Assembly (NCBI GenBank): GCA_017995055.1
Contig: JAGOJP010000001.1
Location: forward strand, 1-54,744
Direction of reading: 5' to 3'
Length of the DNA stretch: 54,744 nt
DNA from: Candidatus Omnitrophota bacterium
GTDB taxonomy: Bacteria; Omnitrophota; Gorgyraeia; Zapsychrales; JANLHA01
Both the position numbers and the translations under genes were made by a program. Positions within the stretch are counted from its first letter, which is position 1. Every line of letters starts with the position of its first letter. Shown in pieces: positions 18,204-18,713 of this stretch. Below the pieces are notes generated by a model that was not told where the DNA came from, did not search any database, and saw only the letters and a list, made by a program, of their open reading frames with translations.

Positions 18204-18713
18204 TTTATTCAATGAGCATTTAGTTTACACGACCTTAAGGGAGTGTAAACTAGAAATGCGAATTGATCCTGAAGCGAGTGAGCTCAGGCGAACGAGTGCA
18301 GGATGCTGGTTTTAACACACGACCCAAGGGAGTGTAAACTAGAAATGCGAATTGATCCTGAAGCGAGTGAGACCAGGCGAACGAGTGCAGGATGTTAGTT
18401 TTAACACACGATCCAAGGGAGTGTAAACTAGACATGCGAATTGATCCTTCAGCGAGTGAGCCCAGGCGAACGAGTGCAGGATGTTGGTTTTAACACACGA
18501 CCTTAAGGGAGTGTAAACTAGAAATGCGAATTGATCCTGAAGCGAGTGAGCCCAGGCGAACGAGTGCAGGATGTTGGTTTTAACACACGACCTTAAGGGA
18601 GTGTAAACTAGACATGCGAATTGATCCTTCAGCGAGTGAGCCCAGGCGAACGAGCCGAAGGATGGTGGGTTAATACCCAGCAGCTTGCTCTGGGGTTTAT
18701 ATCTTTAATTATC
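18204..18713 (+). repeat. tandem array 2: same leader, 5 x 89-90 nt units and a fused terminal hairpin (candidate ncRNA or 5' leader)
   Basis: CACGA landmark at 18228, 18317, 18407, 18496 and 18586. The first ~87 nt are identical to array 1 (16137 onward). The tail CCCAGCAGCTTGCTCTGGGG (18676-18695) looks like a deletion fusing the two CTTG hairpins. The array ends 14 nt before the 18727 ATG. Confidence 0.9.

Follow-up and report, generated by a model that had tools for sequence, protein, structure and literature searches.

We analysed a 54,744-nt stretch of contig JAGOJP010000001.1 of a Candidatus Omnitrophota bacterium (the window, for short) and, within it, an array of five hairpin-forming units at positions 18204-18713 (array 2), located just upstream of a gene for a CheY-like response regulator. 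We found at least 40 copies of a repeat composed of leader, units and tail, among them array 2; array 2 is not a regulator specific to the CheY-like gene. With a probability of about 0.78, it is a copy of a composite interspersed repeat, non-coding and lineage-specific, the inner module of which was expanded in tandem and which was inserted in the leader of the CheY-like gene. The first-pass annotation, made from the sequence alone, implied a structured regulatory RNA belonging to this locus. The observations given below, i.e. about 40 sites, unrelated adjoining genes, truncated copies, positions of some copies behind terminators and absence from the untranslated regions (UTRs) of relatives, contradict it, and a false lead to a gene-specific riboregulator is thereby removed.

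Tandem Repeats Finder and a hidden Markov model (HMM) of the unit confirmed that both the five-unit array and a sister array about 1.5 kb upstream (array 1) are real. Tandem Repeats Finder placed array 2 at 18227-18654 (period 89, 4.8 copies, 93% matches) and array 1 at 16160-16612 (period 91, 5.0 copies, 95% matches). Each array has five units, all on the plus strand, as seen both by reading the sequence and in the unit HMM search; the units of array 2 are at 18227-18314, 18317-18403, 18406-18492, 18495-18582 and 18585-18673. The leader TTTATTCAATGAGCATTTAG precedes both arrays, and a hairpin tail with CTTG loops follows both. Array 2 consists of a leader (module A, 18204-18234, right after the flanking tetranucleotide TTTA), five units of 89-90 nt (module B, 18227-18673) and a shortened tail (module C, 18677-18713) made of one hybrid hairpin and the tail sequence GGGGTTTATATCTTTAATT. 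Array 1, with a full extent of 16137-16674 on the same strand, has an A module at 16137-16167 (A-module HMM via nhmmer and sequence) that begins 1 nt past the stop codon of a 535-aa open reading frame (ORF), five B units at 16160-16611 with a spacing of 90-91 nt (Tandem Repeats Finder, nhmmer) and a C module at 16612-16674 (C-module HMM via nhmmer) with two hairpins having CTGG/CTTG loops, plus a tail. The stretch of exact identity between the arrays, put earlier at about 87 nt, is 67 nt long (16137-16203 and 18204-18270). A coding repeat was rejected, as units of 89-91 nt break the reading frame.

The end of array 2 lies 14 nt before the ATG at 18727, as had been noted, and the product of this gene (18727-19119, plus strand) is a single-domain response regulator with a receiver domain (PF00072, E = 3e-27). 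An extended -10 box TGCTATAAT (18163-18171, plus strand), likely the promoter of the CheY-like gene, is conserved in locus L018 of a sister species as well as in L103, a relative carrying no element, which bears out the placement of array 2 in the 5' UTR. The terminator-like GC hairpin TTCCGGCTATTTCAGCCGGAG (18183-18203, plus strand), situated in the 5' UTR and also conserved in L018, abuts the 5' side of the element. Array 2 accounts for about 510 nt of the leader of about 550 nt. A scan for terminators and promoters flagged no intrinsic terminator in the array 2 tail.

Copies of the element were observed well beyond the two arrays. In the window, the module HMMs detected complete single A-B-C elements at 22669-22842 and 41149-41323 (the unit HMM located their units at 22692-22776 and 41172-41257), as well as a lone 5'-truncated C module at 22482-22546, all on the plus strand; this gives four element sites and one lone tail. 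Across about 55 records the order of modules was always A-(B)n-C, with n varying from 1 to 5, i.e. a fixed 5' module, a variable number of tandem inner modules and a fixed 3' module. Truncated forms (AB, BC, C alone) occur as well, and the two arrays of the window are the longest among the records. Outside the window there are about 40 element sites, in the window's species and two sister species. Many dispersed intergenic copies are found in one genome. A scan of one genome per species detected true copies in a single representative, CAZAXH01 (record title: uncultured Planctomycetales bacterium), with at least 14 copies on five contigs. A metagenome scan gave 33 loci, 31 of which came from the activated-sludge assembly UPTA01. 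Since a UPTA01 contig is 100% identical to window positions 16537-18107, we took the UPTA01 copies as other sites of the window's own species. The closest named homologues of the helicase encoded next to the CheY-like gene are in Candidatus Omnitrophota. As many as 45 of the 58 genome-collection matches to the hairpin-2 core pattern were rejected as chance matches in high-GC genomes, and scans of viral contigs gave nothing that pointed to a viral origin.

The neighbours of the elements are unrelated housekeeping genes, coding for, e.g. an NADH dehydrogenase subunit, isocitrate/isopropylmalate dehydrogenase, FabF, ClpB, FtsW/RodA, an M23 peptidase and ADP-forming acetyl-CoA synthetase. So far as our searches can tell, the repeat family has not been described previously: there was no Rfam match at the gathering score in the window (only chance-level matches at E <= 10 to the arrays and to one single element), and a literature search directed at this lineage returned nothing relevant.

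Comparison with two relatives, L103 (helicase 88% identical) and L102 (78%), revealed what the leaders look like when the element is missing. Both relatives retain the order CheY-helicase-desulfoferrodoxin-ferredoxin-yjbQ-hybrid kinase, and modules A, B and C have no match in either of them at E <= 1. The CheY promoter GATGCTATAATACAT is common to the window and L103, and the kinase promoter ...TGTTAGTATAAATATAAATATTTA is common to the window, L018 and L103, with a close variant in L102. Both comparable sites of the window are empty in L103 and L102 despite the conserved promoters. Therefore, the element is an insertion into 5' UTRs, as relatives with the same synteny and the same promoters are without it; and, the promoters being conserved upstream, the elements lie in 5' UTRs downstream of promoters that existed before. 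The kinase-UTR element of the window (22669-22842) begins exactly after the common sequence ...AAATATTTA, i.e. after TTTA, and the sequence on its 3' side aligns with L103 a few bases past the same point. Overall, TTTA precedes the element at 27 of 38 distinct 5' junctions and is already present in the empty sites. The 3' boundary of the element is ...GGGGTTTATACCTTTGATT.

The window's species has its element sites in common with CAZAXH01 (93-95% identity) and with a third species (L077, about 85%), and the unit numbers at orthologous sites differ (1 vs 5, 1 vs about 4). For example, the CAZAXH01 orthologue of array 2 (L018 375-578) has one unit, a remnant of a second unit with an internal deletion, and a full two-hairpin tail. 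Therefore, both the expansion to five units and the deletion in the tail postdate the split of the species. The tail of array 2 has one hybrid hairpin, CCCAGCAGCTTGCTCTGGGG, and at the orthologous site (L018 514-578) both hairpins, CCCAGCAGCTTGCTGCGG...TCTAGGGCTTGCTCTGGGG, are retained; the earlier proposal of a deletion between the two AGCTTGCT cores is thus borne out. The leader and the first half-unit of array 2 are identical to those of array 1 and unlike the orthologous L018 leader, and a rare TTAAGG loop variant is common to both arrays. These patterns point to probable gene conversion between arrays located 1.5 kb apart. The recombination suggested in the first-pass annotation is supported in this form, as an exchange between arrays. 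The loss or duplication of the 16.7-18.2 kb segment, also suggested there, was seen in no contig encoding the flanking proteins; assemblies simply break at the arrays.

A single B unit folds as two hairpins. Hairpin 1 has the form AGUUUACAC-GA-CC-loop-GG-GA-GUGUAAACU. Hairpin 2 is a long rod with an outer stem of 6-7 bp, followed by GC-GA-GU-GA-GC / GC-GA-AC-GA-GU and a CCAG loop, so that short Watson-Crick steps are split by two tandem G·A mismatches. The linker AAATGCGAATTGATCC is almost invariant across units. The plus-strand folds score better (z = -2.4 to +0.4 in four units, compared to +0.25 and +0.56 for the minus strand) because of the G·U pairs, which occur only on the plus strand. 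In the RNAalifold consensus, the leader is paired with the linker that follows hairpin 1 and not with the tail; a helix closing leader and tail was not predicted by RNAalifold.

Several details of stem variation reported earlier were reproduced. Units 1, 2 and 4 of array 2 have ATCCTG...CAGGAT in place of ATCCTTC...GAAGGAT, the form present in array 1 and in unit 5; the sixth pair is changed from U:A to G:C and the seventh pair is lost. Unit 3 is a mismatched hybrid, with a CCTTC left arm against a GCAGG right arm, and unit 5 has the ancestral CCTTC/GAAGG. In unit 1, the CTCAGG in the hairpin-2 loop region allows an alternative pairing of CCTGA with TCAGG.

We assessed pairing across the whole family with 61 distinct units, 25 predicted pairs and 500 shuffles. 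Standard pairs were formed in 86% of the cells, compared to 30-44% when the partners were slid, and one predicted pair was broken in 19 of the 61 units. Double changes occurred in 4 of the 25 pairs, a count reached by 218 of the 500 shuffles: pair 6:34 was G-C in 27 units and A-U in 7, pair 55:86 was U-A in 35 and G-C in 8, and pairs 60:83 and 61:82 each had one double-changed unit. The covariation score, computed from copies that are related, was 0.069 versus 0.050 in shuffles (none of the 500 reached it). The family is young (column identity of 81-84%), too young to put covariation to a strong test.

The comparison of orthologous copies was more informative. Whole elements were 88.3% identical, compared to 92.3% for their upstream flanks. 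Paired positions differed in 8.5% of cases and unpaired positions in 18.0% (Fisher p = 3e-7), which amounts to a constraint on the stems about twofold tighter than on the loops. Among the changed pairs, 19 were one-sided changes that kept the pair, 7 were compensatory, and 30 were unpaired in at least one copy. Thus, the expected covariation was weak at the level of the family, with no more double-changed pairs than in shuffles, and the constraint on the stems was evident between orthologues. This constraint fits selection that acts on a folded RNA or on single-stranded DNA; gene conversion or palindrome-templated repair may add to it.

The elements also have a preferred orientation. In 44 of the 49 records with enough flanking sequence, the element is on the G-rich strand, and most elements are co-directional with both neighbouring ORFs, as far as crude gene calls show. 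The GC skew on the gene-sense strand is strong (about +0.13 to +0.16 in the window and loci L069-L101), and the long ORFs are nearly all on one strand, with 3 credible minus-strand genes in 54.7 kb. The bias could therefore have several causes: selection may act on the RNA, insertion may be strand-specific, or the element may need targets made of a T-run plus A on the sense strand behind genes. Elements clearly antisense to their neighbours were observed at three sites (L015, L086/L088, L091), and those in L073 and L076 follow the neighbour genes against the local skew; these exceptions are too few to separate the explanations.

Several observations weigh against the interpretation of array 2 as an inserted interspersed repeat. 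Neither the window nor the surroundings of any copy yielded a transposase or another gene for mobilisation; Pfam scans covered the ORFs of the window and those adjoining truncated copies, and detected ordinary genes only. No convincing terminal inverted repeats were detected between the 5' end TTCAATGAGC and the 3' end CCTTTGATT, which match as an inverted repeat at about 6 of 10 bases. Inspection by eye revealed no target-site duplication at any of 38 junctions on the 5' side and about 30 on the 3' side; nor was one seen between filled and empty kinase UTR sites, where resolution is limited by the divergence of the flanks. With sites conserved in three species (85-95% identity), the family is not demonstrably mobile now. 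The position of some copies, exactly downstream of good promoters, is the one expected of an RNA gene: such promoters end about 7 nt before the elements at 41149, L076, L080 and L090. The constraint on stems, together with the strong orientation bias, could reflect a host function rather than selfish DNA. Finally, the counted number of units, and perhaps the hybrid unit 3, could be affected by short-read assembly. The arrays are spanned only by the window's own contig, 9 of 10 assemblies containing the gene upstream of array 1 end at array 1, several contigs end at array 2, and array 2 has 2 or 3 units in other contigs. The first 58 nt of unit 1 recur in unit 4, and short-read graphs can therefore collapse the array.

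In the history that we consider probable, an element made of a leader of about 25 nt (A), one to five tandem two-hairpin units of about 90 nt (B) and a tail of about 65 nt with two similar hairpins (C) would have spread through the genomes of a small clade of uncultured PVC-group bacteria. It would insert mostly after TTTA, on the G-rich gene-sense strand, and here would have come to lie between the CheY-like gene and that gene's own promoter, within the 5' UTR. The B units may then have multiplied by slippage or unequal recombination between units, array 2 may have exchanged sequence with array 1 by gene conversion, and half of its tail was probably lost by recombination between the two tail hairpins. 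The element would be transcribed as a structured insert of about 510 nt in the leader of the CheY mRNA, where rod-like hairpins, partly with tandem G·A mismatches, could alter the stability, processing or translation of the mRNA.

Another explanation, speculative and in our estimate unlikely, is a portable structured-RNA module: a double hairpin of about 90 nt, with three tandem G·A motifs and a fourth one in the leader helix, would spread in the sense orientation through leaders and spacers, be kept folded by selection, and dock a host RNA-binding protein or RNase, and its tandem expansion, of which the two five-unit arrays beside signalling genes would be examples, would tune downstream expression in a heritable and copy-number-dependent manner.

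We regard as improbable a functional family of structured RNAs, either cis-acting leaders or small RNAs acting in trans, with the B unit being a platform for a protein or a ligand and the number of units tuning the output; the copies across the genome would then be a regulon, not selfish DNA. The halved rate of change in orthologous stems, with compensatory changes, the better plus-strand folds with their G·U pairs, the bias of orientation with transcription, the copies starting about 7 nt after a good -10 box and the nearly unchanged linker would all fit such a family. On the other hand, a riboswitch or another cis-acting leader should be conserved in orthologous leaders and tied to the function of the gene, and we found the element missing from the same UTRs in L103 and L102, with neighbour genes sharing no common function. 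The promoter and terminator context is inconsistent from copy to copy: terminator-like hairpins, with the T-run merging into TTTA, directly precede the copies in L042/L070, L038/L101, L096 and L097, and the 3' end of a tRNA gene is upstream of the one in L081. Many copies are truncated, orthologous copies diverge more than their flanks, the family-wide number of covarying pairs is no better than in shuffles, a predicted pair is broken in almost a third of the units, and Rfam had no match. A sponge for CsrA of the CsrB/RsmZ type was also considered and rejected; each 90-nt unit has two GGA motifs (AAGGGAG, GAAGGATG), located in predicted stems or G·A motifs and not in loops.

Highly improbable, in our view, is a miniature derivative of the IS200/IS605 type of insertion sequence (IS), associated with palindromes and moved by a Y1 (HUH) transposase encoded elsewhere, with the hairpins being DNA recognition structures. 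Elements of this type are alike in having no terminal inverted repeats or target-site duplications, in strand-specific insertion at a short motif, and in hairpins near both ends. IS605 inserts next to TTTAA, and here the insertion is 3' of the short fixed motif TTTA, present in empty sites. The preference for the G-rich strand is as expected for insertion into the lagging-strand template, and the tandem G·A mismatches would fit as well, being stable in DNA hairpins too. However, the IS200/IS605 family has hairpins of similar form at its left and right ends, and here the end hairpins are unlike each other, hairpin 1 (GTTTACAC..GTGTAAAC) being unrelated to hairpin 4 (CCAGAGCTTGCTCTGG). No guide-to-cleavage-site match could be read from the sequence, and pairing of the IS608 style was not found by eye at the aligned junctions. 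The window and the neighbourhoods of the copies yielded neither a cognate Y1 transposase nor TnpB, the elements in L073 and L076 are oriented like the genes next to them and not according to the local skew, and we know of no element derived from IS200/IS605 with an internal module that is amplified in tandem.

The least credible alternative is a stack of promoters, with each B unit raising downstream transcription through TTNACA, a spacer of 16-18 nt and TAAACT. Such a stack would account for 14 promoter-like sites in 15800-19200 compared to 3.6 expected, ten of them being the TTNACA/TAAACT motif, with seven plus-strand matches in 7 of the 10 B units (every unit of array 2 plus the first and fourth of array 1) directed to the downstream genes; moreover, BOX modules were reported to stimulate downstream expression (PMC3049150). 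However, the match (9 of 12 positions) is a by-product of the hairpin-1 palindrome, as its boxes, TTTACA or TTAACA and, 16-18 nt further, TAAACT, are the two arms of hairpin 1 (16157-16184, 16428-16456, 18224-18251 and later array 2 units). There are also two minus-strand matches to the motif, in unit 1 of each array, some units alter the key second base of the -10 box (e.g. GTGTCAATT in L070), native promoters already exist upstream of the CheY and kinase copies, and the compensatory changes in hairpin 1 favour pairing over promoter boxes.

Among known systems, the closest analogue of the inserted repeat is the pneumococcal BOX element (boxA-boxBn-boxC), by a likeness in kind and not by homology. 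In Streptococcus pneumoniae and S. suis, the inner module of BOX folds independently and varies in tandem number; the copies are often co-transcribed with their neighbours and may affect their expression; and the sites are mostly conserved between strains, with little current mobility, the unit number being used for strain typing (PMC3049150). Both are composite non-coding intergenic repeats of about 100-600 nt with many copies, fixed ends and a variable inner module. The B unit described here, however, has about 90 nt and two hairpins, compared to 45 nt in boxB. The phyla differ as well; the two are likened by architecture, and kinship in sequence is not expected. The leader pairs with the linker of the first unit and not with the tail, so the pairing of 5' and 3' modules typical of BOX was not found, and the element differs further in its lack of terminal inverted repeats, its TTTA context and its strong strand bias. 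To our knowledge, the element has no similarity to an IS end.

MITEs (miniature transposable elements with inverted repeats), such as Correia/NEMIS in Neisseria, RUP in pneumococcus and ERIC in enterobacteria, are alike in being small non-autonomous interspersed repeats that form hairpins when transcribed and can change the stability, processing or promoter activity of adjoining genes, and the presence or absence at orthologous sites typical of MITEs was observed here. However, we found neither the terminal inverted repeats nor the target-site duplications by which MITEs are defined, and MITEs have no tandemly variable inner module. The REP/BIME repeats of enterobacteria are also mosaics of intergenic hairpin modules, often located at 3' ends or between genes of an operon, and affect mRNA stability. 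In contrast to the modules described here, which are longer, have more AT and keep a single order and orientation throughout, REPs are GC-rich palindromes of 20-40 nt with a GTAG head and alternating orientation.

A BOX-like composite repeat is hereby documented in a barely studied, uncultured lineage of PVC/Omnitrophota, and modular repeats with an amplifiable inner unit are not confined to streptococci. The family explains breaks of assembly at dozens of places in this organism, where unit counts cannot be trusted without long reads. It also places about 500 nt of stable hairpins in the leader of a CheY-like gene, with further copies in the leaders of sensor kinase and acetyl-CoA synthetase genes. 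As the stems are measurably constrained, an effect on the fate of the mRNA is plausible.

The other element sites of the window are as follows. The hybrid histidine kinase gene (22952-25540) carries the element at 22669-22842 in its 5' UTR. The one at 41149-41323 is behind a TTGTCA-17-TACAAT promoter, and the ADP-forming acetyl-CoA synthetase gene begins about 30 nt further on (ATG at 41355). The lone C module at 22482-22546, also present in L018 (4355-4419), is at the start codon of the yjbQ-like gene on the minus strand (22080-22475), 122 nt upstream of the 22669 element. The arrays bracket two genes, as stated in the first-pass annotation, and both are on the plus strand: a hydrophobic ORF of 184 aa (16876-17430) with no Pfam match and a DUF2934 gene (17604-17897; PF11154, E = 1.6e-10). 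Upstream of the latter, at 17500-17528, there is a near-consensus match to a promoter of the sigma-70 type (TTGACA, 17 nt, TATTAT; 11/12).

In L102 and L103, a phoB/phoR-porin-pstSCAB-phoU cluster of about 9 kb is directly upstream of the CheY-like gene, with a DUF2934 gene just before the pst/phoU cluster in L102 (compared were L102 1-9865, L103 966-9866 and window 17604-18727). The window has the order DUF2934, array 2, CheY, and no pst/phoU genes anywhere. Therefore, a synteny break coincides with the two-array region.

The window is rich in signalling genes: two GGDEF proteins, three single-domain receivers, a MORN-repeat protein and two Cache-HAMP histidine kinases, one of them hybrid, are encoded at 1208-1942, 18727-19119, 22952-25540, 29803-32774 and 43492-45189. 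Such genes are downstream of two of the four complete elements in the window. About 8 kb downstream of the arrays, at 26569-28462, there is a pair of genes for RtcB RNA ligase and archease; no link to the repeats was found, nor was there a Y-RNA-like Rfam match in the window.

Some copies outside the window adjoin tRNA genes or each other. In L081 (about 9520-9623) the element starts directly after the 3' end of a tRNA gene and a T-run, and a truncated A-B copy without a tail (L043 3814-3912 / L089 557-663) has a tRNA gene about 40 nt downstream. In L070 (7340-7630), from the window's species, a partial unit and tail are directly followed by a second, complete A-B-C element, and the orthologous site in the sister species (L042 7008-7126) has the partial unit and tail only. 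This difference would be produced by an insertion, nested or adjacent, or else by the loss of sequence between two tails.

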